DNA of 35,496 nt from Candidatus Kaiserbacteria bacterium (GCA_007116405.1 SKIN01000044.1:1-35496); one strand, 5' to 3'. Numbered from the stretch's first letter, positions 6,337-32,110 are shown. Numbers and translations: made by a program. The notes: generated by a model not told the origin, from the sequence alone.

Positions 6337-6771
6337 CTACAACACACCGATCTCACCTAATTTTTCCGCTACACGGTCTGCTTCCTGCTCCACCGATGCT
6401 CGATACGTATCCCAGAGCTGTTCGTCCCACACTTCACACCTGTCGTTCACACCGATGAGTACTGTCTTGGTGGTGAGTTTGGCGTGTCGTGCGAGTTCAG
6501 AAGGGATGAGTATGCGACCGAGCTGATCAATGTCGATCTCCGCGGCACCAGCAAAGAGGTAGCGACCGAACGCACGGGAGTCTGCCTGGCCCATGGAGAG
6601 CCGGTTCAACTTCTCGACTATGGAGCGCCACTGTGTCTGACTAAAGACAAAGAGGCATGAGTCGAGTCCGCGCGTGATGACTACTTTCTTACCGAGCGCA
6701 CGGCGGAATTTTGCCGGTAGCGCGATCCTTCGTTTGCCATCGATCGTGTGTCTGTATTCGCCGATGAGCAT
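6337..6771 (-). CDS. mraZ: Transcriptional regulator MraZ
   Basis: 144 aa from the internal Met (MLIGEYRHTIDGKRRIALPAKFR). Both SpoVT/AbrB-like halves are present (DxxGRxxxP). The longer 315-aa ORF extension is low-complexity and runs into the relA-side intergenic region. Confidence 0.9.
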   Translation of the reverse strand: MLIGEYRHTIDGKRRIALPAKFRRALGKKVVITRGLDSCLFVFSQTQWRSIVEKLNRLSMGQADSRAFGRYLFAGAAEIDIDQLGRILIPSELARHAKLTTKTVLIGVNDRCEVWDEQLWDTYRASVEQEADRVAEKLGEIGVL

Positions 6772-6810
6772 ACGATGGATCAGTAGAACGGGGGCGTATC
6801 TACCGATATA

Positions 6811-6844
6811 CCACTTTGTTCCACATGCATACACAATACACCAC
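6811..6844 (-). promoter_or_regulatory. Candidate MraZ operator: four GTG(G/T) boxes with exact 10-nt spacing
   Basis: The plus strand has CCAC at 6811, 6821 and 6841 and ACAC at 6831. These read GTGG/GTGT in gene orientation and lie 40-73 nt upstream of the mraZ start. Confidence 0.55.
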
Positions 6845-6967
6845 TCTGCCCTCCTCTCCCCAGCATCTTTTCCACATATACTGCTCTGTTGCGGCCGATA
6901 TAAGGCGATTTCACTGTTCGAACACAGAGGTGTTGCGTTGTCGAGGATTCGGTCGCATAGTATACCT

Positions 6968-8518
6968 ATGACAAAGACCGAAACACAGTCCGCGGACGAG
7001 CTTATCTCGTACATGTCGAACCCCACGGAGGAGGACAAAGCGCTGGTGCGGAAAGCGTTTGATTTTGCAAAGGAAGCGCACCGAGACCATAAGCGCATGA
7101 GTGGTGAGCCGTATTTCAACCACTTGTATGCCACTGCAAAGGCGCTCGCCGAGATAGACATGGGGGCACGCACCATTAGTGCGGGCCTGTTACATGACTC
7201 GATAGAGGATGTGGGCGTGACGCCGGAGCAGATCCGTGATGAATTTGGACCCGAGGTTCTCTTTTTGGTAGAGGGGGTCACCAAGCTGGGAGAACTGAAG
7301 TACCGTGGTGCCGGGCGTCATATCGAAAGCCTGCGACGACTCTTTGTCGCAACGAGTCAGGATATCCGCGTACTCCTCATCAAGCTGATGGATAGGCGCC
7401 ATAACATGCACACACTCGACCACGTGAGGCCGGAAAAGCGCCTGCGTATCGCCACCGAAACACTGTCTATCTACGCCCCCATAGCCGACAGACTCGGGAT
7501 GGGCCGACTCAAGAGCGAGCTCGAAGACCTTGCGTTCAAATACGTGTACCCAAAGGAATACAAGCGCATCGAAGAGATCATGAGCGAGAGCAAGCTTGCC
7601 AATGAGCCGAAGCTCGAGAAAGTGCGCAACAACCTCAAGCGAGCGCTTGCGGAACACGGGGTCAAGAATTTTCGTACCGAATCACGGGTAAAGGGGCTGT
7701 ACTCCCTCTACCGGAAACTCGAACGCAAAGGAGGGGACCTCGACAAGATATACGACCTCCAAGCCATTCGCGTCATCCTTGGAAATGTCGAGGATTGCTA
7801 CCGTGCGTTAGGTGTCGCTCATACCCTCTGGCACCCACTGCCGGGAAAGATAAAGGACTACATCGCATTCGAGAAGCCCAACGGTTACCGTTCCATTCAT
7901 AGCACCGTGATGACTCCCGACGCGGGGCCGGTGGAGCTGCAGTTCCGCACTGAGGAAATGCACCGTGAGGCGCAGTTTGGTATTGCCTCACACCTCGGAT
8001 ACAAAGAGCAAGAAGGGCCGACCCTCGACCGCGGGCAGCAGAAGCGTGAGCAGCTGTGGTACCGGCACCTCATCCCCTCCCTCTTCAATACACAGGTGCA
8101 AAACCGTACTGAACAGAAGAAGACCCCCAAGTGGATCAGTGAACTCGCCGATGCACATCTGGCGGAAACGCTCACCGAACGCGATACGTTCATGCAGGAG
8201 ATACAGGACGACTTCTTCAGTCACCGCATCTTCGTATTCACACCAAAAGGTGACGTCATCGACCTTCCTATTGACTCAACGCCTATCGACTTTGCGTATG
8301 CAGTACACTCGGAGATAGGCGACCGCACCGCACGTGCGATAGTGAACGGAAAGATAGCCCCACTCAACGCTCAGTTGAAGAACGGTGACATTGTCCAAAT
8401 AGAGACCAGTAAGAATGCCCACCCGAACAAAAAATGGTGCGAATACGTCCGCACCACTATGGCACGCAAACACATCCATCAAGCACTGCTACGGCAGCAG
8501 AAGGATGGAAAACACTAG
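6968..8518 (+). CDS. rel: Bifunctional (p)ppGpp synthetase/hydrolase, RelA/SpoT homolog (short form, 516 aa)
   Basis: HD hydrolase motif (LLHDSIEDV), synthetase domain (YRSIHSTV) and TGS domain (FTPKGDVIDLPIDSTPIDFAYAVHSEIG). Start set at MTKTETQ because the longer ORF overlaps mraZ. Confidence 0.85.
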   Translation: MTKTETQSADELISYMSNPTEEDKALVRKAFDFAKEAHRDHKRMSGEPYFNHLYATAKALAEIDMGARTISAGLLHDSIEDVGVTPEQIRDEFGPEVLFLVEGVTKLGELKYRGAGRHIESLRRLFVATSQDIRVLLIKLMDRRHNMHTLDHVRPEKRLRIATETLSIYAPIADRLGMGRLKSELEDLAFKYVYPKEYKRIEEIMSESKLANEPKLEKVRNNLKRALAEHGVKNFRTESRVKGLYSLYRKLERKGGDLDKIYDLQAIRVILGNVEDCYRALGVAHTLWHPLPGKIKDYIAFEKPNGYRSIHSTVMTPDAGPVELQFRTEEMHREAQFGIASHLGYKEQEGPTLDRGQQKREQLWYRHLIPSLFNTQVQNRTEQKKTPKWISELADAHLAETLTERDTFMQEIQDDFFSHRIFVFTPKGDVIDLPIDSTPIDFAYAVHSEIGDRTARAIVNGKIAPLNAQLKNGDIVQIETSKNAHPNKKWCEYVRTTMARKHIHQALLRQQKDGKH

Positions 8519-8521
8519 TGT

Positions 8522-9763
8522 TTATATACTGAAGTTGCGCAAGGAGTAGAGGTCATCCTCCTCCTCTTCGCGCTTATGCGAGGGTTCGTTGGTCTCGTTT
8601 TGCTCTACTTGCGCCGGCACTGCTTGGGCCTGGGGCGTCATACCGAGCATTGCAAACGCCGCACTCATACGGTCGGTACTAGAGCGCTCAGGTGCGGTGT
8701 CTTCTTCAGGTAATGGACGGTCCTGTGATGGTGCAACATGCGGCGCTTCCGCGTCGACGGCGGGCTCCCCGGAAGCCTCTCCGCTCGCTATGTCCGCGAT
8801 AGGGTCAGCGCTGTCTTCTTCCGGCATTGCCATCGTTCCGGCTGCTGCTGCAAATACTCCGGCGGCAACCGCAGGTGCAGTGCGTTGCGGCGCCTCGCTT
8901 GGAAACATGTTCGCGGCACGCATCTCACTCTCTCGCTCCACTTGGATGGCGCGAAGTAGGGCTTCCAAGTCGTCCGGTGAGAAGAAGCTGATGACGACAC
9001 GTCCGCCTACCTCCCTTGGCTCGATAGTGACTCGGGTTCCCAGTTTCTCTGTGAGAGAGCGCTCGAGCTCAAGTATTTCCGGGTTGATCTTATGCTTGGC
9101 ACTCACTTTGTCTTGCGCGGCTCGACGCGCCAGTGCTTCCGATTCGCGCACGGTCAACTTTCGGAGCAGTATCTCCTTTGCGAGTACCGCCTGCTCTTCC
9201 GGTCTATCATTGAGCATCATAAGGGGACGAGCGTGCCCTTCGGAAATGCGTCCCTCGGAAAGGTACGTAAGCATGTTCTCAGGTAGCGTGAGGAGGCGTA
9301 ATGTGTTTGAGACGTATTCTCTACTCTTGCCAACCTTCTTTCCTATTTCGATATGAGTGAAATTGAACTCTTTATACAATTTTTGAAATGCTATCGCGCG
9401 GTCGACCGGGTTCAGGTCTTCGCGCTGGAGGTTCTCGATGATGGCGAGCTCCAGCTTCATTTGGTCGGTCTGTTCACCGGTACGGATGATGACCGGAACC
9501 TGGGAAAGACCGGCTATTTTGCTTGCGCGGAGACGGCGCTCACCGGCAATGAGCTCGTATGATACGTTGATGCCCCCGTCTTCGCGGGACCTTTCGTGTC
9601 GTGTGACCGTGAGCGGCTGGAGAAGCCCGTACATGCGAATCGACTCCGCAAGCTCGTTGAGCTTTGCTTCATCGAACTCTCTGCGTGGCTGAAACGGGTT
9701 TGGCTTGATGCGTTCGATCTCAACCCAGAAGATCGAATCGCGATACATATCGCTCTCGCTCAT
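8522..9763 (-). CDS. parB: ParB/Spo0J-type partition protein with a long acidic, low-complexity C-terminal tail
   Basis: ParB box (QPRREFDEAKLNELAESIRMYGLLQPL; LIAGERRLRA) and an HTH region, followed by about 130 aa rich in A/E/P/D. Confidence 0.85.
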   Translation of the reverse strand: MSESDMYRDSIFWVEIERIKPNPFQPRREFDEAKLNELAESIRMYGLLQPLTVTRHERSREDGGINVSYELIAGERRLRASKIAGLSQVPVIIRTGEQTDQMKLELAIIENLQREDLNPVDRAIAFQKLYKEFNFTHIEIGKKVGKSREYVSNTLRLLTLPENMLTYLSEGRISEGHARPLMMLNDRPEEQAVLAKEILLRKLTVRESEALARRAAQDKVSAKHKINPEILELERSLTEKLGTRVTIEPREVGGRVVISFFSPDDLEALLRAIQVERESEMRAANMFPSEAPQRTAPAVAAGVFAAAAGTMAMPEEDSADPIADIASGEASGEPAVDAEAPHVAPSQDRPLPEEDTAPERSSTDRMSAAFAMLGMTPQAQAVPAQVEQNETNEPSHKREEEEDDLYSLRNFSI

Positions 9764-9884
9764 GACGTGATGGTGACAGGTGCGACGGGCAAGATCGACA
9801 CCCTTACTAAATGCCCGATGTGTTTAGTATACACTGATTGCCCTCTATAGAAAATGCGGTACACTGTGGAAACCCCGATACCAT

Positions 9885-9966
9885 GCCGGAGTGGCGGAAT
9901 TGGTAGACGCGCACGACTCAAAATCGTGTCTCGCAAGGGGTGAGGGTTCGATTCCCTCCTCCGGCA
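9885..9966 (+). tRNA. tRNA-Leu (anticodon CAA)
   Basis: Acceptor GCCGGAG/CTCCGGC, anticodon loop CTCAAAA, long variable arm, T arm GAGGG-TTCGATT-CCCTC. Confidence 0.9.
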
Positions 9967-10099
9967 CACACATACACCGTCTATGACCACACTGTCATAG
10001 ACGGTTTAAGCGATGCTGCTGCCCTGCCGTCAATACCTGTGGAGCTGACAGGCGGGTATAGTACACGTAGAAGGCAACCACAACGCGAGGAGGTGCAGT

Positions 10100-10573
10100 A
10101 TGTTGTCGTTTGAGATGCGTGAAGAACGCGGATTTCCCCTACTGTTTCAGACGTACTTGCAGACAGTTAAGAATAGTGTCAGCTCGCATCAGTTCCGTAA
10201 TCTGTACATGGAGCAAGGCGGTCGTAGTGTGGACGTACTTGAGGACGGCAATCTCTCGTGCGCGTACTACGTATCGTCCCTACTGATGCCACTTGGACTC
10301 ATTCAGCGTCCACACACGTGGGTCAAGAATACCGTTCATGACCTTCGTTCATCCGGATGGGAAGCAACCAAGGTCCTTGAACCAGGCTGCATACTTGTAT
10401 GGGCGGCAAAAGTGGGGGAGAGCGGCAGGTCTCATAAGCACATCGGCTTTTACATCGGGGGTGGTCGTGCCATAAGCAACGACGACCGCCTTCGGTCACC
10501 GCAGGAGCATGACGCCGATATGGGCGGGAGGCACATCGACCTTATTCTCGATCATTACGCGCTGGAACGGTAA
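10100..10573 (+). CDS. Hypothetical protein, possibly a papain-fold (NlpC/P60-like) hydrolase
   Basis: 157 aa. A Cys in GNLSCAYYVSS and a His in HIGFYIGGGRAISND occur in the order and spacing typical of NlpC/P60. Weak, by eye only. Confidence 0.35.
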   Translation: MLSFEMREERGFPLLFQTYLQTVKNSVSSHQFRNLYMEQGGRSVDVLEDGNLSCAYYVSSLLMPLGLIQRPHTWVKNTVHDLRSSGWEATKVLEPGCILVWAAKVGESGRSHKHIGFYIGGGRAISNDDRLRSPQEHDADMGGRHIDLILDHYALER

Positions 10574-10637
10574 GTTCGCGCAGCACACCATAACGGGCGG
10601 CCCTTGCGGGGTCGCCCTCTTTTTCTATACTGCACTG

Positions 10638-11540
10638 ATGGAACAGCAACGACTCATCGCTATCGTAGGACCCACGGCAAGTGGGAAGACAGGCCTCGGC
10701 ATAGAGCTTGCAAGGCACATTGGCGGCGAGGTCATTTCTGCCGATTCACGGCAGGTGTACCGAGGGCTCGACATCGGCACCGAGAAAGTGACGCTGAGGG
10801 AGATGAGGGGTGTTCCCCATCACTGTATTGATATAGCTTCCCCGCAGCGCACCTTTTCGGTAGAACAATGGCGCACCCATGCGCTTCGTGCCCTGCGTGA
10901 CATCGTGCGGAGAGGCAATGTGCCTATCCTTGTCGGTGGCACAGGGTGGTACGTCGATGCACTTTTGTACGGTGTCGTACTGCCACACGTACCACCAAAC
11001 CTTGCCCTGCGTGCCTCGCTACAGAAACGGTCAACTGAAGAACTCTACGACACGCTGCGCACACTCGACCCCGAACGCGCTCGTACCGTAGAACGACACA
11101 ACCCTCGACGACTCATACGAGCGATCGAGGTTGCAACGGCGTGCGGCAGTGTCCCCCAGATACGCTACGACGCGCCTGCGTTTGATGTACTGTGGGCGGG
11201 CCTGAACCCCGGAATGGAGGAACTCGAGAAGCGAATTGAGGCGCGGTTGGAGCGCAGTTTGCGTCGGGGACTCGTAGCAGAGACCAAAGCGCTGCGTACC
11301 GACCTGCACCTATCAACCAAACGTATTGAGGAACTTGGTCTGGAGTATCGCGCTGTGGATGCGTACCTACGAGGCGCGTACACCAAGGACGAACTCCGTG
11401 CACAGCTCGTGACAGGACTTCGGCGCTACGCGAAGCGTCAAATGACGTGGTTCAAGCGCAACAAGGACATTGTGTGGTACACAAGCCCCGACGATGCGCT
11501 GGGTGACACCCTGCTTCGACTCACTTCTCCTCCTCAGTAA
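10638..11540 (+). CDS. miaA: tRNA dimethylallyltransferase MiaA
   Basis: Start at MEQQRLIAIVGPTASGKT (P-loop), followed by ISADSRQVYRGLDIGT. Confidence 0.9.
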   Translation: MEQQRLIAIVGPTASGKTGLGIELARHIGGEVISADSRQVYRGLDIGTEKVTLREMRGVPHHCIDIASPQRTFSVEQWRTHALRALRDIVRRGNVPILVGGTGWYVDALLYGVVLPHVPPNLALRASLQKRSTEELYDTLRTLDPERARTVERHNPRRLIRAIEVATACGSVPQIRYDAPAFDVLWAGLNPGMEELEKRIEARLERSLRRGLVAETKALRTDLHLSTKRIEELGLEYRAVDAYLRGAYTKDELRAQLVTGLRRYAKRQMTWFKRNKDIVWYTSPDDALGDTLLRLTSPPQ

Positions 11541-11733
11541 GGTCTGCTTCTATCTCACGAAATTCATTCTCAACCTCGCGGATGCGTGCTTTGAGTTTTT
11601 TGACCAGCGCAGCACCCTGCTTGACCTTTGAGAGGCCTTCTTCCACATCAAGCTCTTCGCCTTTCTCAAACCACTCGGCTATGGCTTCGAGTTCTTTAAG
11701 CTGGGTCTGTATGGTGTCCTTTTTTTCTGTCAT
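11521..11733 (-). CDS. xseB: Exodeoxyribonuclease VII small subunit
   Basis: 70 aa from MTEKKDTIQ, helical and acidic (LEEIAEWFEKGEELDVEE-like). Begins 4 nt after the xseA stop. Confidence 0.8.
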   Translation of the reverse strand: MTEKKDTIQTQLKELEAIAEWFEKGEELDVEEGLSKVKQGAALVKKLKARIREVENEFREIEADLTEEEK

Positions 11734-11737
11734 GGTC

Positions 11738-13015
11738 CTATTGTACACCGCTATCCTTCTTTTGCACGACCGACCGCACAGTGCCGTCCGCCAAGCGAGT
11801 CGTGAGTGTGTCACCTTCCGTGACATCGTTCACACTCCTCACCACTTTCCCTGCGGGATCGTACACAATGCCATACCCGCGAGCAAGTAAGCGTGCGGGG
11901 TCTGAGACGGCGATGATGCGCTCGAAACCTTCTATGGACCGCACCGTGTCACTCAGGCGGGACGTCAGGGCGCCGAGGATACGACGTGTGTAGCGTGCCT
12001 CACGCTCACGGATACGAGTGACCTCGAGGGGAATGCGGTTACGTGCGGAACGTATCACCTCTTCATAGCGGTAGAAACGCGACACAATGCGTGCAATGGC
12101 GTGCCGGACACCTCTCATGGCAAGCTCAGCTCTGTGCTCCATGTCACGTAGGTTGGTACGGAATGACGTGGCGATGCGCTCTGCTAGACGTGGCATACGC
12201 TCTGTGAGCGGGGCCCACGAGTCATTGATGAGATGCGCGACCGCTGTCGGTGTACTCGCGCTTCTGTCTGCGACCATGTTTGCTATAGGAGCATCCACAT
12301 CGTGACCAATGCCCACCAAGACAGGTACAGGGCTTGCGAATATGGCTCGCGCCACAGCTTCATTGTTGAAGCCCTGGAGCGACTCGAGTGAACCGCCGCC
12401 ACGAATGAGCACAAGGACTTCGGGGCCATCCTTCATGCGTGCAAAGTGTTCTATGGCGCGAAGTATCTCCGACGCGGAATCAGCACCTTCGACCCCGGCA
12501 TGGAGAAAGTCGATACGGATACCCAACGGGCGCAGGTTCTTTCTGAGGTCTTGCAACACGACGCCGTTGCGTGAAGATATGACACCTATGTGGCTGATAC
12601 AGACGGGCAGCTCACGCTTCCGCACAAAGAGACCCTCTTGGTCGAGTTTCTTTACAAGGAGCTCGTATGCCCTGCGTAGCGCGCCCTCACCGACAGGTTC
12701 GATCTGCGACACCCAAAAGCCGAAGTTGCCGCTCTTTGCCGCTATCTTTCCGTAGCCGGTCACACGGACCGCCATGCCTTCTTCCACATTCACTCCAAGG
12801 CGCCGGTAGACGCCGCTGTGGAGTCCGCACCTGAGTATCGCGCCTGTCTCCGCATCCTTGAGCGCGAAGAAGACCCATTGCGGGAGTATCTTGAGGTCGG
12901 TCACTTCCCCTTCCACCGACACCGTGAGTGGTGCCAGCAATGTGTTCACCACTTCGAGGTATTCGTCCACGCGCAATACCCGCGAAGTGAGTTCGTCTGT
13001 GAAAGGATGTGACAT
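11738..13015 (-). CDS. xseA: Exodeoxyribonuclease VII large subunit
   Basis: 425 aa. N-terminal OB-fold region (VEGEVTDLK...WVFFALKD) and catalytic core (GVISSRNGVVLQD, LIRGGGSLE). Confidence 0.9.
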   Translation of the reverse strand: MSHPFTDELTSRVLRVDEYLEVVNTLLAPLTVSVEGEVTDLKILPQWVFFALKDAETGAILRCGLHSGVYRRLGVNVEEGMAVRVTGYGKIAAKSGNFGFWVSQIEPVGEGALRRAYELLVKKLDQEGLFVRKRELPVCISHIGVISSRNGVVLQDLRKNLRPLGIRIDFLHAGVEGADSASEILRAIEHFARMKDGPEVLVLIRGGGSLESLQGFNNEAVARAIFASPVPVLVGIGHDVDAPIANMVADRSASTPTAVAHLINDSWAPLTERMPRLAERIATSFRTNLRDMEHRAELAMRGVRHAIARIVSRFYRYEEVIRSARNRIPLEVTRIREREARYTRRILGALTSRLSDTVRSIEGFERIIAVSDPARLLARGYGIVYDPAGKVVRSVNDVTEGDTLTTRLADGTVRSVVQKKDSGVQ

Positions 13016-13019
13016 GATG

Positions 13020-13090
13020 CGGGTCCACTCCGACTCGAACGGAGGACGGCGGTTTTGGAGACCGCTGTTTTACCACTAAACTATGGACCC
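13020..13090 (-). tRNA. tRNA-Trp (anticodon CCA)
   Basis: Acceptor GGGTCCA/TGGACCC, anticodon loop CTCCAAA, T arm CTCCG-TTCGAGT-CGGAG. Its 3' end is 5 nt from the xseA start codon. Confidence 0.9.
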
Positions 13091-13110
13091 GTAACGACGT
13101 ATATTTTCCC

Positions 13111-13138
13111 CTAAAAACAACAAACCGGCAAGTGCCGG
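13111..13138 (-). terminator. Hairpin plus T-run after rpmG
   Basis: CCGGCA-nn-TGCCGG, followed on the minus strand by TTTGTTGTTTTT. Confidence 0.5.
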
Positions 13139-13161
13139 CTGTGCAGTGCGTGCGTGGAGGC

Positions 13162-13317
13162 TTACTTCTTCACCTCCTTATACACCACATACTTCCTGAG
13201 CACAGGGTCGTATTTGCGAAGTTCAAGCTTCTTTTCGACACGCTTTTTGTTGCGGTTGTCGTACCGCATATGCTTGCTCTCAGTGCTCTTCAGTTTTACT
13301 AGGTGATCCTGGGACAT
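13162..13317 (-). CDS. rpmG: 50S ribosomal protein L33
   Basis: 51 aa from the internal Met (MSQDHLVKLKSTESKHMRYDNRNKKRVEKKLELRKYDPVLRKYVVYKE), which looks typical of L33. Confidence 0.85.
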   Translation of the reverse strand: MSQDHLVKLKSTESKHMRYDNRNKKRVEKKLELRKYDPVLRKYVVYKEVKK

Positions 13318-13379
13318 GCGAAGGATAGTACAGCAATAGAGGGCGGGCGTCAATAAAAGGCTACGCGCATCCCCTTAGA

Positions 13380-14339
13380 TCAATTATATACGGAGAAGTG
13401 TGCTGCCGTTATGCGCGGGACGACTTGTATGCTACCGGCTGGCACGCCCTGCGCGACAAGCTGATCTTTCTCTTGTTGTGTCTTGACTTCATAGACCGCG
13501 CGAAGTCCGTTTGCTTCTGCTATTTCAATCACCCTTCTTACTTCTGCTCCCGTGGGTGTGTAGGAAGAACCACCAACAAAGTTGTAGTCGATGCACGTGC
13601 CATTGTAGTGGCACGGATTACTGTGACGGACAGTCGGTGGCCATACCTCAGTGACCCACATGTTAAGTCCGGCTGCTGTTACAGCGTTGTGGAATGTGAT
13701 TATCTTATCAAGGGTGTTTGCATCGAGTTGGCAATTTCCCGTAGGTGACGCACTCCTGTCGCACTCCCTTCCGTTTGTACGAAGAGAGTGGATGTCGACA
13801 CAGGTGCTACAAAATGATGTTGCTACGGGTGCTTGGGGTGGACGCGTTATAGGTTCGCCGGGTGTAAGCGGAGGTCGTTCGGGGCCCTCTATGTCAGTAC
13901 CTCTACATAGGATTTCATTCCATGGACCCCATTCTGCCGGACCTGCCTCGCCATAGAACGTCTTCATAGCAAAATCGATAAAGAGGTATGACGCGAGTAC
14001 GATGATCAGTCCTATGAGCGTTCTAATGAAAACACGGTGTGCCTTTGCGATGTTCGCAGGGCTCGCCGGAGAGAACAAATACAGAACGCCAGCGTTCACA
14101 AATAACAGTGCTGCTACAATCACTACTACAAATACAAAGAAGTCGATGATGTTCTTAGCAAGTGCGACGAGTTCACAGGGGGTGCAAATATCATCAGTGG
14201 TGTTTCCACAGGGAACCAGTGGTGCCAGCCATGCAAAAGACAGCAAAGGAAACAGCATGAGCACTGTGACCATTGCCACCATTAGCCTGCTTCTTGCAGA
14301 CCGCCTTGTTGATGAATTGTTGTTGGCTTCTGTATTCAT
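13380..14339 (-). CDS. Membrane protein A: N-terminal cysteine-containing pilin-like two-helix module, Pro-rich linker, Cys-rich C-terminal domain
   Basis: 319 aa from MNTEANNN. The module LVPCG...CTPCELVALA...FVNAGVLYLF.PASPANI.KAH...IGLIIVLA resembles the T4SS-pilin-like family common in CPR genomes (recalled, not searched). The C-terminal domain has H-x6-D plus a distal His. Confidence 0.6.
   Translation of the reverse strand: MNTEANNNSSTRRSARSRLMVAMVTVLMLFPLLSFAWLAPLVPCGNTTDDICTPCELVALAKNIIDFFVFVVVIVAALLFVNAGVLYLFSPASPANIAKAHRVFIRTLIGLIIVLASYLFIDFAMKTFYGEAGPAEWGPWNEILCRGTDIEGPERPPLTPGEPITRPPQAPVATSFCSTCVDIHSLRTNGRECDRSASPTGNCQLDANTLDKIITFHNAVTAAGLNMWVTEVWPPTVRHSNPCHYNGTCIDYNFVGGSSYTPTGAEVRRVIEIAEANGLRAVYEVKTQQEKDQLVAQGVPAGSIQVVPRITAAHFSVYN
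13905..14219 (-). repeat. Copy 1 of the ~312-nt pilin-like module coding repeat
   Basis: Encodes residues LVPCGN...WNEILC of protein A. By-eye alignment to the C terminus of protein B gives about four-fifths amino-acid identity. Confidence 0.8.
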
Positions 14340-14349
14340 GGGGCAAGAA

Positions 14350-15156
14350 CTAGTTACACAAGATGTTATTCCACGGACCCCAATCTGCCGGGCCCGCCTC
14401 ACCGTAGAACGTCTTCATTGCAAAATCAATGAAGAGGAAAGCCGCGAGGACGATGATGAGTCCAATAAGTGTCCTGATGAACAAACGATGCGCCTTTGAG
14501 ATATTGGCGGGTGATGCAGGTGCAAAGAGGTAGAGGACGCCAGCGTTCACAAACAGAAGTGCAGCAACGATGACCACGGCGAATACGAAGAAGTTGAGTA
14601 TTCTCTGCGCCAGTGCAACGAGCTCACAAGGCGTGCACATTACGTTGCCGTCTCCACATGGCACAAGACCGGCTTGATTGGCGGTGGGGTCTTGAGCAGG
14701 AGGTGGGGGGTTAGAAGTAGCCCCCCCTCCACCTGAATCTGTAGTAGGGGGTACATAGGCTGAATTCACAATACGGTTGTTTGTGACCGGCAACGCACCA
14801 GGCGCCTCATACGTTATTCGGTACGTACCCTCTACATTGGTATCAAGACTACTTACTGAAGTGATGGTGTTGGTGGATGCATCAATCAATTCGATCCTTA
14901 CCGTAACCTCGCTTGAATCAAGGGGCAGACCCCACCTGTCCTTATACTCAACACCTTGCAACAGATCTGCCTGAGTGATGACACCGGAATCATATTCCAA
15001 CATTACCGAGCCATCCGGTACTTCTATTCTATTATTTGCAAAGGCTACGCTCGGTGTAAAAAGAGCAATCAGGAACCCCGTAATGACACACAGAGCCACT
15101 ATCCCATACACATATCGTTGTGCGCTGACATTTGTCAGAGATACTACACCACTCAT
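14350..15156 (-). CDS. Membrane protein B: signal anchor, Ig-like beta domain, Gly/Pro linker, C-terminal pilin-like two-helix module
   Basis: 268 aa from MSGVVSL. The middle region contains LDTNVEGTYRITYEA, typical of bacterial Ig-like domains. The C terminus is the same module as in protein A. Confidence 0.6.
   Translation of the reverse strand: MSGVVSLTNVSAQRYVYGIVALCVITGFLIALFTPSVAFANNRIEVPDGSVMLEYDSGVITQADLLQGVEYKDRWGLPLDSSEVTVRIELIDASTNTITSVSSLDTNVEGTYRITYEAPGALPVTNNRIVNSAYVPPTTDSGGGGATSNPPPPAQDPTANQAGLVPCGDGNVMCTPCELVALAQRILNFFVFAVVIVAALLFVNAGVLYLFAPASPANISKAHRLFIRTLIGLIIVLAAFLFIDFAMKTFYGEAGPADWGPWNNILCN
14356..14667 (-). repeat. Copy 2 of the pilin-like module coding repeat
   Basis: Encodes LVPCGD...WNNILC at the extreme C terminus of protein B. 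Confidence 0.8.
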
Positions 15157-15315
15157 AACACACCCATTATTGCACGTTTTGGGTCGCAGCACTGACTTTA
15201 TCCCCAAATGCATTGGGTCATATCGGAAACAGCTCGCGGAAGCGGTAAGAACTAACATGTCGAAGGACGACGGCATTTACAAAGTATTCAATTCAATGGT
15301 ACTATCTCACGCACA

Positions 15316-15398
15316 GCGTCGGTGGCGGAGTGGTCAATCGCACTTGGCTGTAAACCAAGCGGCTTCGGCCTACGGGGGTTCGAATCCCTCCCGGCGCA
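15316..15398 (+). tRNA. tRNA-Tyr (anticodon GUA)
   Basis: Acceptor GCGTCGG/CCGGCGC (one G-U pair), anticodon loop CTGTAAA, long variable arm, T loop TTCGAAT, discriminator A. Confidence 0.9.
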
Positions 15399-15401
15399 CA
15401 A

Positions 15402-15432
15402 ACAAAACCCTGCGTATGCAGGGTTTTTGTGT
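15402..15432. terminator. Bidirectional terminator hairpin; copy 1 of a 31-nt direct repeat
   Basis: ACAAAACCCTGC-GTAT-GCAGGGTTTTTGTGT, identical to 15648-15678. Confidence 0.75.
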
Positions 15433-15597
15433 GGGCGACGGGAAGTATGGTGCCTAAGCACCATACGTGGGATTCGAACGGCCGGAGTCATGTTCCGAGT
15501 GAAGCGAGGAACGGACGAGGCCCGTCCAGCGGCACTTGTGAGATGAGCGGCTTTGCCGCGAAGCGAGCTAGTGACCGCGGGATCAATCCCTTCTCTG
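15433..15597. ncRNA. Unclassified structured element E1, homologous to 34830-35006 (strand unresolved)
   Basis: Non-coding gap between two copies of the same terminator. Several local perfect hairpins (15445-15466, GTTCC/GGAAC, GCGGC/GCCGC, GGGA/TCCC). Contains a tRNA-like GGGATTCGAA block (TTCGAATCCC on the other strand). Shares ordered sequence blocks with E2. Confidence 0.4.
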
Positions 15598-15647
15598 ATA
15601 AACCATTAGTATATGGCAGTCAGAAATTAATTGGATCATAGCAACAC

Positions 15648-15678
15648 ACAAAACCCTGCGTATGCAGGGTTTTTGTGT
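15648..15678. terminator. Bidirectional terminator hairpin; copy 2 of the 31-nt direct repeat (also serves clpB)
   Basis: Identical to 15402-15432. Lies 19 nt past the clpB stop. Confidence 0.75.
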
Positions 15679-15696
15679 TGAATCCAGAGATGCTTC

Positions 15697-18396
15697 CTAC
15701 GCCCCTGTAATCTGATACGGTCGTATAGCGCTTGGACGTGCCTTGCCCCGCCCTTTCTTTACATCAAAGATAATCTCGTCCTTCTTCATTGCCACCGTTA
15801 TCGAGCCGCCTTCTTTGACACCGTTACTGACCATCATGGAGGCAACAGGAGTGAGTATCTTGTTTTGGATAAGACGCTTCATCGGGCGAGCACCGTAGTG
15901 CGGGTCATAGCCTTCCTTTGCAAGGTAATCCACAACCTCATCAGTTACCGTAAGTTGTATCTCGCGCTCAGACAGACGCTTGGCAACAATATCTATCTGC
16001 ATTCGGGCGATGTCATGCACCACATCCGGCGTAAGGATGTTGAAGAGTAGTATCTCATCAAGACGGTTGAGGAATTCTGGTCGGAAGAAATCCTTAAGGG
16101 AATCCATCACCTTACTCTTCGCATGTTCATAGTCGGCGCTCTCTCCGGTGTCGGCACTAAAGCCCATCCTACTCATGCGGTCGATGTGCTCCGCTCCAAT
16201 GTTTGAGGTCAAGATGATGACCGCATTCTTGAAATTGACCACCCTGCCCTTGGCGTCGGTCAAGTGCCCGTTGTCTAAGACTTGCAGGAGGATGTTGAAT
16301 ACCTCCGGATGCGCTTTCTCCACTTCGTCAAAGAGAAGGACAGAGTATGGACGATGACGTACGGTCTCGGTAAGGTTGCCACCCTCTTCGTAACCAACAT
16401 ACCCTGCCGGTGCACCGATGATCTTTGAAACACTGTGACGCTCCATGTACTCACTCATATCCACCCGTATCAGCGCCTTTTCATCGTCAAACATGAACTC
16501 TGCGAGGGCTTTGGAAAGCTCGGTTTTACCCACACCTGTCGGACCCAAGAAGAGGAATGAACCGATGGGACGATTGGGGTCGGATATACCGGTGCGGGAA
16601 CGGCGCACGGCGTCCGCTATCTTCTGAACCGCATCATCTTGGCCTCGCACGCGCCGCTTCAGCTCATCTTCCATGCGTGATAGCTTCGACGCTTCTTCCT
16701 CGAGCATGCGCGCTACAGGCACTCCGGTCCATCGACTTACTACGTCGGCAATGTCCGCCTCGGTTATCTCCTCTTTGAGGATGCGACGTGTACGTTGCAG
16801 CTTCTTCATGCGCTTCACGTTCGTATCGAGTTCCTTCTCGAGGCCGGGGATAGTACCGTAGCGTATCTCGGCCGCCTTGCTTAGGTCTGCGGCCGCCTCC
16901 GCATTGTCGGCTTCCACGCGCTGTTGTTCGAGGTCCTTCTTGATGCGCTTTATCTCCTTCAGGGTGTCCTTTTCGTTGGTCCACTTCACTTCAAGTTCGC
17001 GGGTCTTCTCACGGAGCGAGCTTATCTCGCTTTCTATTGCACCAAGACGTGTTCTGGCTTTTTTACTGGTCGCATTCGAACTTGATTCTTCAGCGTCCTT
17101 TTTCAGTGCCTCTTTCTCTATTTCCAGGCGCATTATCTTGCGATGCGTCTCTTCAAGGACTGGCGGCTTATTCTCAAGGGCGATACGCAGTGCTGATGCC
17201 GCCTCGTCGATGAGGTCGATGGCCTTGTCCGGCAAGAACCGTTCGGTGACGTAACGCGCGGAAAGATGCGCCGCGGCAACGATAGCGTCGTCGGTAATGC
17301 GCACGCCGTGGTACACCTCGTACCGTTCACGAAGGCCACGCAATATTGCGATAGCGTCCTCCAATGAGGGTTCATTTACTCGCACGGGTTGGAAGCGACG
17401 TGTAAGTGCCTGGTCTTTTTCAAAGTGCTTCTGATACTCTTTTGTTGTCGTAGCACCTATTACCCGCAGTTCTCCGCGAGCCAAAGCCGGCTTGAGGAGG
17501 TTTGCTGCATCAATGGCTCCCTCGGCACCTCCGGCACCGATAAGGGTGTGTATTTCGTCTATGAATAAGATGACGTGACCGTTTGAACGCTCAATTTCCC
17601 GCATGACATTCTTCAGGCGATCCTCGAATTCCCCGCGGTACTTTGTGCCCGCCACCAAAAGGCCGAGGTCGAGCGACACGAGCTCCTTACCACGCATGCT
17701 CTCCGGAACCTCACCCGCAGCCATGCGAACAGCAAGACCCTCGGCGATAGCGGTCTTACCCACACCCGCCTCACCAATGAGGATGGGGTTATTTTTCGTG
17801 CGACGTGAGAGTATCTGGATGACGCGCGTGATCTCCGCATCTCTGCCGATGACCGGGTCGAGTTTGTTTTCTCCCGCAAGCTGCGTAAGGGAGCGCGTGT
17901 ACTTTGCGAGTGCCCGGGACTTCTTCGGCTGGTCTCCGCCCTCTTCCTCGGCACTGCGTGTCTCCTGCAATGCGCGTGTCACCGCTTCGCGCTCGAATGA
18001 GTAGCGCGCGAGGACTTCACCCGCTGGCCCGGGGGTGTCGAGTATGGCGAGAAACAAGTGTTCGGTGCCCACGAACTGGTCGTTCATTGACGCGGCCACT
18101 TTGCCGGCATTCTCAAGGACCTGCGCCAACTCGGGCGTCAGGTAGAGCTGGTAGCTCGGTGAGAGTACAGTGGCGTTCTCCGGTGATTCAAGTGCATCAA
18201 GTATCGAATCGGTCAGCGCTATGATGTCGACATTGAGACGCTCGAGGAGCGAAAACACGATACCCTCCTCTTGGAGGACGACCGCGGCGAGGAGGTGAAG
18301 CGGATTTACGTGGTTCTGGCCACGCTCAACCGCCAGTTCGTGTGAACGCCGAACTGCTTCTTTTGCTTTTGGGGTGAAATTTTGAAACGGTACCAT
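15697..18396 (-). CDS. clpB: ATP-dependent chaperone ClpB
   Basis: 899 aa. Clp N domain, two AAA+ modules ([20 protein letters not shown]) and a long coiled-coil middle domain. Confidence 0.95.
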
Positions 18397-22105: not shown

Positions 22106-22483
22106 TCATTGGAGAGGAAGGTCTGCCGGTAGGTCAGAACCGGTGATGCCGAACGTGAGAAGTACCATTTGTATTATCGCAAAGACTGAGACCATCACCA
22201 CCATACCAATGGTACCCCAAACCATATGTTGTTTTCCAGCAGCGCGCCCTGATTCGTCTCCTGCGTTTAGAATAAAGGTGAGTAGACCATAGAGGAAGTA
22301 CACAAGGGCTAGTGCAAATATCACCCCGATAATGGGATTGATAATGTTATCCGACACTTTCGTCATGAATTCGACGGTTGCCGGAGGAACGGTGTTGTCC
22401 ATAGGAAAATCGGGGAAAGAGCCGTCTAATGCATGGGCCACCTTCGCACTAGAGCTCTGTACACCCTGAAATAGGCTGATCAT
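22106..22483 (-). CDS. Small TrbC/VirB2-like (pilin-like) membrane protein, paralog 1
   Basis: 125 aa with two TM helices flanking FILNAGDESGRAAGKQHMVWG, a motif shared with the four upstream paralogs. Confidence 0.6.
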   Translation of the reverse strand: MISLFQGVQSSSAKVAHALDGSFPDFPMDNTVPPATVEFMTKVSDNIINPIIGVIFALALVYFLYGLLTFILNAGDESGRAAGKQHMVWGTIGMVVMVSVFAIIQMVLLTFGITGSDLPADLPLQ

Positions 22484-22538
22484 GATATGTCACAAGTATA
22501 CACGGTGACGCGAACGTACCGCAAACTATCTTATACAC

Positions 22539-22563
22539 AAAAACACGGCTGTGCCGTGTTTTT
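22539..22563. terminator. Bidirectional terminator between pilin-like paralogs 2 and 1
   Basis: AAAAACACGGC-TGT-GCCGTGTTTTT. Confidence 0.65.
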
Positions 22564-22586
22564 GTGGCAGAGTAACAAAACTCTTA

Positions 22587-22946
22587 CTAGGCACCAGGAA
22601 TTGCAGGTAGATCTGCGCTGCCACCTGTGTCGACACCGGTGAGCTGCGCGAGAAGATTTACAAGTCCCCATACTGCTACGATAACGAAGAGTGCGATAAC
22701 ACCCCATATCATCTTTCGCTTACCTTCCTCCTTTGCAGCCTCATCTCCGGAAGCAGCAATGTACTGCACGAGACCCCAGATGAAGAACAAGAGACCCAAG
22801 GCAATGACAAGTGGTATCAAGAGGTTGACGACATCCTGAATCCCCTCGACAAGCGTCTCGAAGAAACTGAGGTCTGGTGATGCTGCCAACACCATTACCG
22901 GCAGAAACATCATCCCAAATGGAATCGCTCTAGCTACTGTATTCAT
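22587..22946 (-). CDS. Small TrbC/VirB2-like membrane protein, paralog 2
   Basis: 119 aa, signal-like N terminus, motif YIAASGDEAAKEEGKRKMIWG between two TM helices. Confidence 0.6.
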   Translation of the reverse strand: MNTVARAIPFGMMFLPVMVLAASPDLSFFETLVEGIQDVVNLLIPLVIALGLLFFIWGLVQYIAASGDEAAKEEGKRKMIWGVIALFVIVAVWGLVNLLAQLTGVDTGGSADLPAIPGA

Positions 22947-23109
22947 ATGAATTATGATAATTTTTAACGTCTTCTAATAAATAACTATTGGTTCAGAGGG
23001 CTTATTCTCTGCTTAGGTACGAATTACGTACTTCACCTTACTAAGCATACCACATTTAATTGCCGCTATACACGCTGTCTGTGGATAATCGTGCACCTCA
23101 ACAAGATCG

Positions 23110-23490
23110 CTAACATGGCTCCATAGTGCCACCTCCGGACAGATCTATCTGAGGTGGTGGGCACCGATTGCCCCCAGGCTGGGACGCATCGACTCCAAAC
23201 AATTGTGTCAATAATGTTACCACACCCCAGACGGTCACAACTAGAAAAAGGCCCACAATACCCCATACCATCCGCTGCTTCCCCTCGGCTACACCTTTTT
23301 CATCTCCTGCATTCGCGATAAAGCGCACGAGACCCCATATGAATACAACAAGGGCTATACCGACCCCAACGGCAACAAACTGCCCCAATGCGATGGTAAT
23401 GAAGTGCAGTATGGTAAACGCTGTCACTTGCGCATGTGCAACACTTGATGTCAGAAAGGCGATAAGTAACAATGCAGGTACTATTTTCAT
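23110..23490 (-). CDS. Small TrbC/VirB2-like membrane protein, paralog 3
   Basis: 126 aa, signal peptide MKIVPALLLIAFLTSSVAHA, motif FIANAGDEKGVAEGKQRMVWG. Confidence 0.6.
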   Translation of the reverse strand: MKIVPALLLIAFLTSSVAHAQVTAFTILHFITIALGQFVAVGVGIALVVFIWGLVRFIANAGDEKGVAEGKQRMVWGIVGLFLVVTVWGVVTLLTQLFGVDASQPGGNRCPPPQIDLSGGGTMEPC

Positions 23491-23496
23491 ATGGTG

Positions 23497-23832
23497 TTAT
23501 GCTGAGCCGAAAAAAGTTGCGTAAATGATCCTTACAACACCCCATATGCCAACCATCATGAATAGAGAAAGGACGCCCCACACCATGACCTGCTTTCCTT
23601 CAGACCTTGCTCTTTCGTCTCCCGACCCCGCTATGAAGCGAATGGCTCCGTATATGAACGCGAGTACCGCCAATACCATCAGAAGCGTTACCACGAGACT
23701 CAAGAGGGCCATCGCTATTTCAGCGACAGTCTTGAGGTCCGCTGGTCCGGCATAGGCCGCCACAGGGACAGAGAGCGCCACAAAGATAGCTACCAACCCT
23801 TTCTTGTGAGATGTGATGTGGAGAGCGGACAT
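23497..23832 (-). CDS. Small TrbC/VirB2-like membrane protein, paralog 4
   Basis: 111 aa from MSALHITS; this start avoids overlap with paralog 5. Motif FIAGSGDERARSEGKQVMVWG. Confidence 0.6.
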   Translation of the reverse strand: MSALHITSHKKGLVAIFVALSVPVAAYAGPADLKTVAEIAMALLSLVVTLLMVLAVLAFIYGAIRFIAGSGDERARSEGKQVMVWGVLSLFMMVGIWGVVRIIYATFFGSA

Positions 23833-23836
23833 GATA

Positions 23837-24169
23837 TCAGAAAGACTGTATCGTGCCCTTGATAGCAAGGGCAAGTGCCTTCGAACCCAGGACCACGAGC
23901 GCGCCTATTACTGTCCATATCAACGCCCTACGGGCCTCCTGCAACTTTGTGGGGTTCCCTTGAGCCGCAACAAATAAGAAGCCGGTGTACACTATCATGA
24001 GCACAATGATAGGGTACATGATGTATACGACCACATTAAGTATTGCAAGTAAAAATTCTTCCAACGTGTCAGATTGAAGGGGGTTTTCAAACTGTCCATG
24101 CACGAAAACGGTCGACGGCACTAACGCGATTGATAGAACACTTAGGAGGAATCTCTTCAATGTAGCCAT
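23837..24169 (-). CDS. Small TrbC/VirB2-like membrane protein, paralog 5 (most divergent)
   Basis: 110 aa, signal-like N terminus, motif FVAAQGNPTKLQEARRALIWT in the same topology. Confidence 0.5.
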   Translation of the reverse strand: MATLKRFLLSVLSIALVPSTVFVHGQFENPLQSDTLEEFLLAILNVVVYIMYPIIVLMIVYTGFLFVAAQGNPTKLQEARRALIWTVIGALVVLGSKALALAIKGTIQSF

Positions 24170-24187
24170 ACTATGGGTTGTTCCACA

Positions 24188-25522
24188 TTATCTATTATAT
24201 CTATTTAGCAAAGTGCTAATATCACGTCCTGCTTCTGTTGTAGCGGATTCGACAGTACTCTGTTTAGAGACGACATCATTGACCATCCGCCCAAACACAT
24301 CGTTTACTGACCTTTGGTCAGGTTGGAGCCAGCTTCTTGCTATAAGCGCTGACTGTGCAACGATGGTCGCATTGGGGTCTGCAGGATCGGCCCGCAACCT
24401 GTCTCTGCGGGTGGTGGATAGTTTTGTTGTGTTCTGGAATACGTCGGCAGTACGAGACGAACTTAGCTCCAGCGCCACTCCAAAGGCATCGCTCCTAAAA
24501 CGTGATTGGCGTAGTACGGCGATGCCGTAGAACTTCCCGTACGTGAGACGATTTCTCCCTACTGCCGTTGCCTGTGGTAGCATGGCAATATCAAAATTAA
24601 GGTTGGGGTTAGTTGCTATGACTGCGTCAATTTCGCCCGCAAAGCCAATGTACATAGCAGTTCTGTTTGCGGCGAATGCTTCTCGCGAGCCATTAAACGT
24701 CTTATTCCATGAATATACTGTCTTTATCGGGTCTGCAAAATCTGTATAAAAACGAAGTGCGAGCTCCGGACGACCCGCAGTCTCTGCCCTGTATGTTGGG
24801 AGAAGATCGGTTCCCCACGCTTGCGGTCCTCCCGTTGGCTTTACGAGTGAAAGTCCGAGTTGCATGAACAAAGCACTTATTATCTCCTTGGCATGTCGTA
24901 CGTTATCAAATTCTCCGAGAGCCGCCCCACTCTGAACCAGTTCACCACCGCCTCGAATAATGGAGAGCCGGGGTACGATATCTGTGAATGTCGTCCAGTC
25001 CTCCGGAACGGTGACGATGCCAGCATTGTTGAAAAGGTTCCGATTCCAGTACAACACCATTGGGTCAACCAGGAATGGGAGTGCGTAGATACCATCATCC
25101 AACGCGAATATCTCGGCACCTTCTACGTAGGCTTCGCGATATTGTCGTGCGCTAAAACTCGTGTACGGAAGGGGTTGTATCTTGTCACGCAAGGCAAGCA
25201 ACATGCTCGGATCGATCACCACAGCGTCGGGTCCACGACCAACCGCCAACGCCTCAAGGAGTTCTGAGTACAGAGTTGCTGGATTCTTCTCTACATACGT
25301 TGTCCGCTTCAAGCGCTCGTTGTCATTGCGTAGAATCCGCAAGACTTGCGCTACACCGCCCCCGGGTAGAGGTGGCCCCCATATCTCTGTAGGACCCGTC
25401 ACTACGACAGTGCCTTCGGGGGGAGGTGGTTCGTACGTGGCAAGTACGAACACGGCTACAACAGTGACACCTCCGAACACTGCGAGTAATATGTACTGAA
25501 ATGCCTTTACTTTTTCACCCAT
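24188..25522 (-). CDS. Membrane-anchored extracellular solute-binding protein (ABC family-1 SBP-like); no permease or ATPase nearby
   Basis: 444 aa with an N-terminal TM helix. SBP-like blocks (PDAVVIDPSML, GIYALPFLVDPMVLYWNRNLFNNAGI..PEDW, NRTAMYIGFAGE). Confidence 0.7.
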   Translation of the reverse strand: MGEKVKAFQYILLAVFGGVTVVAVFVLATYEPPPPEGTVVVTGPTEIWGPPLPGGGVAQVLRILRNDNERLKRTTYVEKNPATLYSELLEALAVGRGPDAVVIDPSMLLALRDKIQPLPYTSFSARQYREAYVEGAEIFALDDGIYALPFLVDPMVLYWNRNLFNNAGIVTVPEDWTTFTDIVPRLSIIRGGGELVQSGAALGEFDNVRHAKEIISALFMQLGLSLVKPTGGPQAWGTDLLPTYRAETAGRPELALRFYTDFADPIKTVYSWNKTFNGSREAFAANRTAMYIGFAGEIDAVIATNPNLNFDIAMLPQATAVGRNRLTYGKFYGIAVLRQSRFRSDAFGVALELSSSRTADVFQNTTKLSTTRRDRLRADPADPNATIVAQSALIARSWLQPDQRSVNDVFGRMVNDVVSKQSTVESATTEAGRDISTLLNRYNR

Positions 25523-26048: not shown

Positions 26049-26132
26049 GGGCTATACATACCAGTGTACCAAACAAACGCCATGCACGTCTTATACACGC
26101 ATGTGCATAACACCATCGTGTGGCTCCTGGAG

Positions 26133-31588: not shown

Positions 31589-31689
31589 GATATCCGTGGT
31601 GTGTGGGATAACGATACCACAGATAGCGGGTACAGTGGCACCGTGCTGTTGCTATTCCTAGTAGGATTCTTGTGTGGTATAATAATACA

Positions 31690-32102: not shown

Positions 32103-32110
32103 CAATACCA

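Follow-up and report, generated by a model that had tools for sequence, protein, structure and literature searches.

Genes for VirB2-like pilins of type IV secretion systems (T4SS) occur in arrays that are widespread in Patescibacteria; the T4SS and these arrays are essential in the one species tested (PMC10633639, PMC11665869, PMC12857230). Most Patescibacterial genomes that bear VirB2 lack VirB1, and a survey concluded that the putative pilus needs none (PMC12102498). Here, we describe two adjacent genes, A and B, in a 35,496-nucleotide (nt) stretch of DNA from a Candidatus Kaiserbacteria bacterium (GCA_007116405.1 SKIN01000044.1:1-35496; hereafter, the window means this whole stretch). Their products carry closely similar copies of a VirB2-like module joined at opposite ends to different globular domains, and we somewhat favor the view that the pair acts in remodeling of the cell wall. 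A and B share with the VirB2/TrbC pilins and their Patescibacterial arrays (Pfam family T4SS_pilin, PF18895; PMC10633639, PMC12102498) a Sec signal peptide, a two-helix hairpin, a short basic loop and homology at the profile level, and they too are neighboring paralogues in a genome of the candidate phyla radiation (CPR), with five canonical members 8 kb away. However, the usual T4SS_pilin protein has about 100-130 aa and one domain, whereas A (319 aa) and B (268 aa) are 2-3 times longer than canonical VirB2-like pilins and each has an extra globular, extracellular domain at one end. Moreover, the module bears four conserved Cys, unlike the canonical pilins of the window, the A and B modules are 81% identical in contrast to an average of 25% and at most 54% in published arrays, and, unlike canonical VirB2 systems, neither gene is encoded near virB4.

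Wall hydrolases such as those of the VirB1 type, PrgK, TcpG and TraG are thought to open the cell wall locally for the secretion or pilus apparatus. Like VirB1 and the Gram-positive T4SS hydrolases (PrgK, TcpG and TraG of pIP501), the proteins described here include membrane-tethered peptidoglycan hydrolase-type domains, and relatives of A resemble VirB1 in carrying SLT or lysozyme-like domains. In contrast to these systems, the tether is a pilin-like hairpin and not a single transmembrane (TM) helix, the putative enzyme domain of A is of the LAS/Hedgehog type and not a lytic transglycosylase or CHAP domain, and no T4SS genes lie nearby. The modular type IV pilins PilB and PilC of Streptococcus sanguinis offer a second parallel, as they consist of a pilin module fused to an adhesin/lectin-type functional module (PMC8179133, PMC9934059), although they belong to an unrelated pilin class with a class III signal peptide and one N-terminal helix, whereas A and B have a Sec-type signal and a VirB2-like hairpin with cargo at either end. 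On inspection, neither the class III signal peptide (G/FxxxE) nor the single N-terminal helix of the type IV pilus/type II secretion class was found in A or B. A third parallel is with the Hh/DD-peptidase (LAS, M15-like) and 'bacHh' domains (Roelink 2018, PMC6027127), with which the C-terminal domain of A shares an H-x6-D motif, a catalytic-Glu equivalent, a VTEG-like strand and a last His followed by x-Ser; as in bacHh proteins, this domain is C-terminal in a larger bacterial protein. It is set apart by three predicted disulfides, by its fusion to a pilin-like module and by the absence of a match to any Pfam M15 or Hedgehog-signal model.

The T4SS_pilin family and its arrays, modular type IV pilins (PMC8179133) and bacterial LAS/Hedgehog-like domains (PMC6027127) are already known. 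In full-text literature searches, we found no account of fusions between VirB2-like modules and wall hydrolases or adhesin-like domains, nor of homogenized tandem pairs or an A-type Hedgehog-like subfamily; such fusions are, however, implicit in Pfam, where PF18895 is numbered next to PF18896 (SLT_3).

The pilin-like module shared by genes A and B

Both genes are carried by the minus strand, with B (14350-15156, running 15156→14350) upstream of A (13380-14339, running 14339→13380), a gap of 10 nt between them and both reading frames intact. A preliminary description of the region had placed both genes correctly, the strand being all that we add, and its domain order was upheld by composition and hydropathy: signal peptide, module, Pro-rich linker and Cys-containing domain in A, and signal peptide, beta-rich domain, Gly/Pro linker and module in B. 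The module spans residues 39-146 of A (13902-14225) and residues 162-268 of B (14353-14673), where its last residues directly precede the stop codon; these limits differ by at most 6 nt from the coding repeats reported earlier (13905-14219 and 14356-14667). BLASTP aligned the two copies with 88 of 108 residues identical and 93% positives (E = 3e-61), which is far beyond chance and agrees with the earlier estimate of four-fifths identity.

The DNA of the two module copies is only 73.5% identical, and 61 of the 85 differences over 321 nt fall at third codon positions. The corresponding synonymous divergence is saturated (dS ≈ 2.5), with dN at 0.128 and dN/dS at 0.05, which indicates that purifying selection on an old duplicate has kept the modules alike; the saturated dS rules out recent duplication or gene conversion for this pair. 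Both genes are also present on L010, an independent ENA metagenome contig with 99.94% identity to window positions 7870-16771 (8.9 kb); it encodes an identical B and an A with one different residue. Mis-assembly as the source of the repeat was rejected on the basis of this contig and the synonymous divergence. In the representative sequence library, B is present as P0005 and A, with a difference of 1 aa, as P0004.

We searched for relatives of the module with a hidden Markov model (HMM) run exhaustively against 1.84 billion representatives, since a word-indexed homologue search had retrieved only one relative of the module, two of the A cargo and none of the B cargo. The exhaustive search yielded 10,827 matches (E ≤ 1e-3), and the architecture, Pfam and cargo counts given below refer to the best 150 of these. 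PF18895 matched A and B at subthreshold scores (22.0 bits, E = 1.8e-4, and 20.6 bits, E = 4.9e-4, respectively), and the close relatives P0012, P0023 and P0048 pass its cut-off. It was matched by 133 of the 150 closest relatives (E ≤ 1e-3), and TrbC/VirB2 by 4. When the module alignment was compared by hhalign with the five canonical PF18895 genes of the window, the probability was 95.7% (E = 8.7e-9, 82 columns), and an HMM of the module subfamily matched all five of these pilins (E = 4.5e-11 to 2e-5). To judge from these profile comparisons, the module is a divergent, Cys-bearing subfamily of the VirB2-like (T4SS_pilin) pilins, as had been suggested in the preliminary description. The module also exists in a stand-alone form (P0001, 134 aa).

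Hydropathy and charge counts gave each protein a signal peptide and, after it, two hydrophobic helices. The signal peptide of A (residues 1-38, 14226-14339) has an Arg-rich n-region, a hydrophobic core and AWLA; the start codon is uncertain, Met-20 being that chosen by gene callers. In B (residues 1-40, 15037-15156), hydropathy delimits a segment from 12 to 41 with a hydrophobic core ending in AFA before NN, and the putative cleavage site was placed there by the -3/-1 rule. The A module comprises Cys44, Cys52-x-x-Cys55, a helix (54-89), the loop SPASPANIAKAHR, a second helix (94-128) and Cys145, and the B copy likewise has four Cys and two helices. An AlphaFold2 model of A from a 48-sequence alignment (mean predicted local distance difference test, pLDDT, 79.5) contains the two helices as a hairpin, with block-mean pLDDT of about 68-96; it supersedes a poor model from the single sequence (pLDDT 63.9), which gave weak Foldseek matches. 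Since the interhelix loop lacks acidic residues and has a charge of +3, whereas the flanks carry a net negative charge, the positive-inside rule predicts a cytoplasmic loop, with both ends of the module outside the membrane. The four module Cys are nearly invariant across the subfamily, one after the signal peptide, two in CxxC and one at the C-terminal end of the module. All Cys beyond the signal peptides fall in predicted external segments and in even numbers (four per module and six in the A cargo), and those of the module could tie its two outer ends together by disulfides. The possibility that LVPCG is a lipoprotein box was rejected, because this motif has Pro at position -1 and lies within the chain in B-type proteins.

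Cargo domains and architectures among relatives

The C-terminal cargo of A (residues 177-319, 13383-13811) follows a linker of 27% Pro (residues 147-176, 13812-13901; pLDDT mostly < 55), and its domain type was found in 14 of the 150 relatives and in two partial proteins. A profile of this cargo matched, among PDB sequences, the N-domains of Sonic, Indian and Desert hedgehog, the best being Sonic hedgehog (Shh; E = 2.2e-4). In the profile alignment, VTE corresponds to VTEGW of Shh, H239 to H135, the pair H244-x6-D251 to H141/D148, and E284 to E177; the aligned positions in Hedgehog and DD-peptidases are zinc ligands and the catalytic Glu (PMC6027127). Accordingly, A contains the H-x(6)-D zinc motif as H244-YNGTCI-D251 and the catalytic-Glu equivalent as E284 in VYEV, aligned with the Glu of YYES in Shh. 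At the position of the H-x-H motif, A reads A312-A-H314-F-S and so retains only the second His, the equivalent of the third zinc ligand; this equivalence (HCS in Shh, HVS in the HTH-type relatives described below) was assigned by inspection, without a scored alignment. Among 15 members of the A-type subfamily, D251, E284 and H314 are invariant, and T227, E228, H239, C243, H244 and C249 nearly so. From the alignment to Hedgehog and this conservation, the candidate metal-binding or catalytic residues are H239, H244, D251, E284 and H314. Three disulfides are predicted in the domain.

In the AlphaFold2 model, the block-mean pLDDT of this C-terminal domain is about 75-98 between residues 201 and 319 and dips to 81 at 231-240. 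The best PDB folds found by Foldseek were again Hedgehog N-domains: 2ibg_G (prob 1.00, E 0.038), 2wg4_A (0.99) and 3k7j (0.92). A fold search of BFVD gave nothing significant, and phmmer with the A cargo alone gave only spurious EGF/Notch matches among PDB sequences. As the profile match and the fold match agree, the cargo of A is taken to be a Hedgehog/LAS-type zinc-peptidase-like domain. Bacterial members of the Hedgehog/LAS class cut peptidoglycan peptides, and Drosophila Hedgehog is a precedent for a 'pseudo-peptidase' that only binds. The A cargo is most likely a peptidoglycan peptidase, with zinc binding and activity expected from the residues above. In sequence, animal Hedgehog is closer to the A-type LAS subfamily than any solved bacterial M15 enzyme is.

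The N-terminal cargo of B (residues ~41-125, 14782-15036) is a small beta-rich domain with a GTYRITYEA motif, followed by a Gly/Pro-rich linker recognized by composition (residues 126-161, 14674-14781). The match of PF16403 (DUF5011), confined to the 26 residues around the motif, scored 19 bits (E = 0.0015), short of the cut-off of 27. The likeness to immunoglobulin (Ig)-like domains of chitinase 60 is at the motif level and not significant, and hhalign against the Ig-like repeats at the same position in P0012 and P0032 gave a non-significant probability of 10.8%. Hence, the motif and beta-rich character noted in the preliminary description stand, whereas its Ig-like label finds little backing; an Ig-like fold of the DUF5011 type is a reasonable guess.

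We examined the position of such cargo in the 150 relatives and found four classes of architecture. In 107 proteins the module has a C-terminal extension, as in A; it stands alone in 29, is extended at both ends in 10, and has an N-terminal extension only in 4 (B, P0023, P0032 and P0048). The occurrence of cargo at the N-end, the C-end or both indicates that gene B is neither a one-off fusion nor an artefact and that the family has no single fixed architecture. The earlier proposal that the module serves as both an N- and a C-terminal carrier was thus borne out, although the two ends are not equivalent, since C-terminal cargo is mostly wall-hydrolase-like and N-terminal cargo is of beta-sandwich or adhesin-like types. 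Pfam recognized SLT (7), SLT_3 lysozyme-like (6), M15 families (3), NlpC/P60 (1) and a few others among the C-terminal extensions. When all 117 C-terminal extensions were sorted by BLAST communities and motifs, ~71 were LAS-like in four subfamilies (HWDC type 40, A type 14, HTH type 10 and HxDCC type 7), 17 were SLT_3-like, 7 were SLT and ~20 were unclassified. These counts replace those from single-linkage BLAST clustering, which joined 88 of the 117 and merged lysozyme-like with LAS domains. The LAS label of the non-A subfamilies derives from motifs (HxxGxxxD plus ExxH or HxH) and weak profile links; for example, hhalign linked the A domain weakly to the HTH subfamily (E = 9.8e-5, 58% probability) and to the HWDC subfamily (E = 0.025), and the HWDC-type and HTH-type profiles had no matches among PDB sequences. 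The N-terminal extensions were beta-sandwich types, with weak matches to Big_3, Calx-beta and DUF4625, and one subtilase fragment. The rule emerging from these architectures is that binders occupy the N-end and wall hydrolases the C-end, with some proteins having both, and A and B are one case of a widespread Patescibacterial habit in which wall enzymes and adhesin-like domains are hung on pilin modules.

Other representative pairs have modules 82-89% identical with different cargo. A nearest-neighbor test of module against cargo class (25 of 145 of the same class, compared with 20 ± 4.8 after shuffling) is biased by the 50% clustering of the library and was not used as evidence. The library also contains P0126 (552 aa), in which six pilin hairpins, each with an HMM match, follow head to tail in one polypeptide; this protein is a 'poly-pilin' version of the tandem gene arrays.

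Tandem module genes and their genomic setting

The window represents a chromosome of the Patescibacteria type, and its closest named genomes are metagenome-assembled genomes of the 'Patescibacteria group' and 'Parcubacteria group'; a scan of genome contigs gave three loci only. Genes A and B sit between clpB/tRNA-Tyr and rpmG/tRNA-Trp/xseA. The content of this site varies among relatives. Locus L009, with flanks 77% identical in DNA, has one module gene with different (HWDC) cargo and no B, and L002 has the stand-alone module and an unrelated secreted protein. Tandem module genes recur at the syntenic clpB…rpmG-xseA site in three loci: in L015, a B-like gene (two Ig-like domains and the module) directly precedes a tripartite gene (Ig-like, module and HWDC); in L038, a module-SLT gene directly precedes a module-HWDC gene; and L039 has two adjacent module genes. 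A further pair, ~700 nt apart, occurs in L020, a short contig.

The DNA identity of the paired modules is 62% in L015, 73.5% in the window, 97.3% in L038 and 100% in L039. In L039 (2341-5886), a 511-nt tract of 99.8% identity spans the 5' leader, signal peptide and module and stops at the C-terminal border of the module, and in L038 (10001-12223), a 350-nt tract of 97.7% identity spans most of the module and 14 codons beyond. Outside these tracts, the tandem genes are unrelated. The tracts in L038 and L039 point directly to recombination or conversion confined to the module, or else to very recent module duplication. Recombination of cargo with breakpoints at the module borders had been anticipated in the preliminary description, and the tracts, which end at or near the module border and have unrelated cargo beyond, support it.

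Directly downstream of the stand-alone module P0001, L002 encodes a large secreted protein without a Pfam match (6925-8115, 397+ aa), and another such protein (425 aa) lies directly downstream of the partial A-type protein P0002 in L001 (666-1943). Both are candidates for additional surface components encoded by this same variable locus. Between clpB and tRNA-Tyr in the window, two exact copies of the palindromic hairpin AAAACCCTGCGTATGCAGGGTTTT (15404-15427 and 15650-15673; none expected by chance) flank an unannotated spacer of 222 nt (15428-15649). This spacer has an unusually stable predicted fold on the minus strand (-81.3 kcal/mol, z = -5.0), and a GTTCGAATCC T-loop-like motif lies within it; no Rfam family reached threshold in the spacer.

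The five tandem canonical T4SS_pilin genes of the window (22106-24169, minus strand; 110-126 aa) match PF18895 with 32-55 bits, all above the cut-off, and one of them also matches TrbC/VirB2. These five proteins are possible major-pilin partners of A and B. They lie directly downstream of an SBP_bac_1 solute-binding gene (24188-25522), a methyltransferase gene and gyrA (22106-28610 in all, minus strand). In three or four unrelated contigs from metagenomes (L030, L031, L032 and L036), an SBP_bac_1 gene likewise stands directly before a single pilin gene or an array, with gyrA preceding it in L031, and no VirB4 was found among the large reading frames checked in these four contigs. If the association of a solute-binding protein with a 'pilin' array is conserved, it could offer a clue to the role of these pilins. 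Elsewhere in the window, a bacterial RNase P RNA of class A was identified at 31689-32108 on the plus strand (110.7 bits against a gathering score of 100). The longest reading frames of mraZ (6337-7284, minus strand, 315 aa) and relA/spoT (6674-8518, plus strand, 614 aa) overlap by ~600 nt, and the L009 versions have 206 and 515 aa; the overlap is probably an effect of open reading frame extension, with the true starts internal.

A proposed role in wall remodeling and its alternatives

The interpretation towards which we lean, with modest confidence, is that A and B form a co-transcribed, modular VirB2-like pair with outward-facing cargo at either end and a role in wall remodeling. After Sec export and cleavage of the signal peptide, the module would insert as a helical hairpin with both termini outside, so that either end would be free to carry cargo. 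A would present its Hedgehog/LAS-type peptidase-like domain on the Pro-rich tether, and B its small beta-rich, probably Ig-like, binding domain. The near-identical modules would share a docking partner or co-assemble, whether they are minor modular subunits in a VirB2-type filament or form an oligomer embedded in the membrane, and a binder and a wall-cutting enzyme would thereby be brought together at the cell surface. The pair could then carry out the local remodeling or breaching of the wall that is the job of the separate VirB1 hydrolase in classical T4SS. Polymerization, disulfides, enzyme activity and the target, whether own or host wall, are what we infer from the features described above.

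Several observations weigh against this interpretation. The scores of A and B (22.0 and 20.6 bits) fail the curated PF18895 cut-off of 26.6 bits, Foldseek found no significant VirB2 fold match for the module (T-pilus 8exh_A ranked 26th, E = 7.5), and the canonical pilins of the window are ~20% identical to it, which makes co-polymerization with them doubtful. Residues 177-319 of A match no Pfam model, peptidase models included, and the Foldseek E-values for this cargo (0.04-0.17) lie above 1e-3. The A cargo lacks the first His of the LAS H-x-H motif and, relative to Hedgehog, has an insertion of ~24 residues that separates the Glu from the last His. The cargo of B has no detectable relatives in PDB or database searches. 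No VirB4, VirB6, VirB3 or VirD4 gene is present in the window, and no T4SS machinery was found beside the module genes in L002, L009, L011, L012, L013, L015, L021, L038 and L039. The link to type IV secretion is therefore drawn from the homology of the module, and the surface-display or filament-tip system proposed in the preliminary description is not supported, as VirB4, VirB6 and VirD4 are missing from the window and from beside the module genes of the related loci examined. Moreover, pilus formation has not yet been demonstrated for any Patescibacterial VirB2-like protein.

The main rival explanation, which we regard as possible but on balance unlikely, is that A and B are plain membrane-anchored autolysins that re-use the pilin fold as a two-pass anchor for an own-wall peptidase (A) and a wall binder (B) in growth or division, with neither a filament nor a link to T4SS. 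This explanation draws on the location, since the neighbors are housekeeping genes, with mraZ, mraW, a penicillin-binding protein (PBP) gene and a Mur ligase gene 6-10 kb from A and B and no T4SS gene within 35 kb or in the related loci examined, and on the cargo, the commonest forms of which (LAS/M15, SLT and NlpC/P60) are wall hydrolases typical of housekeeping. In addition, Gram-positive T4SS hydrolases such as PrgK have a simple TM anchor (PMC12102498). However, one TM helix would be enough for anchoring, whereas here the whole module of ~100 aa, its external Cys-bearing ends included, is conserved at dN/dS 0.05. The homogenization of the module between tandem paralogues with different cargo (97-100% DNA identity) points instead to a shared interaction surface, and the homology of the module to arrayed small stand-alone pilins likewise speaks against a mere anchor.

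We consider it quite improbable that the proteins are antagonistic, that is, enzymes of an epibiont directed against the wall of its host, with the module as an export or delivery handle and the variety of cargo reflecting an arms race. Patescibacteria live on host surfaces and T4SS are essential for that lifestyle, cargo turnover is rapid (module pairs 82-100% identical carry unrelated cargo), and the locus contains one gene in L009, two in the window and a stand-alone module in L002, all of which would suit such a role. However, no immunity-like gene is evident beside A and B, two TM helices argue for retention in the membrane of the producer rather than release, the purifying selection on the module is silent on the target, and the organism has no known host. 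An artefact, be it contig chimerism, collapse of a duplication or a frameshift within one gene, might be suggested by two genes 10 nt apart with a long similar stretch, but can be dismissed, since the independent assembly contains the same two genes at 99.94% identity over 8.9 kb, the copies differ at 85 of 321 nt, mostly synonymously, both frames are intact with a signal peptide each, and the same architectures recur in unrelated samples.

A broader hypothesis extends the wall-remodeling interpretation, and we offer it as a speculation that is doubtful in its full form. In this view, a genome-specific 'universal' pilin module would be the building block of VirB2-type filaments or surface assemblies in Patescibacteria, with binders grafted onto its N-end and wall hydrolases, including a Hedgehog-like zinc peptidase, onto its C-end, and gene conversion limited to the module would keep paralogues competent for co-assembly during swaps of cargo. 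If this is true, the Patescibacterial T4SS would have its 'missing VirB1' in these fusions, which would act as an enzyme-armed pilus opening the wall of the host or of the cell itself. The results reveal a large VirB2-like subfamily physically fused to wall-hydrolase-like and adhesin-like domains, which occurs in tandem pairs with modules kept alike. These fusions are a concrete candidate for the missing wall-opening function and a candidate route by which surface functions may diversify in very small genomes.

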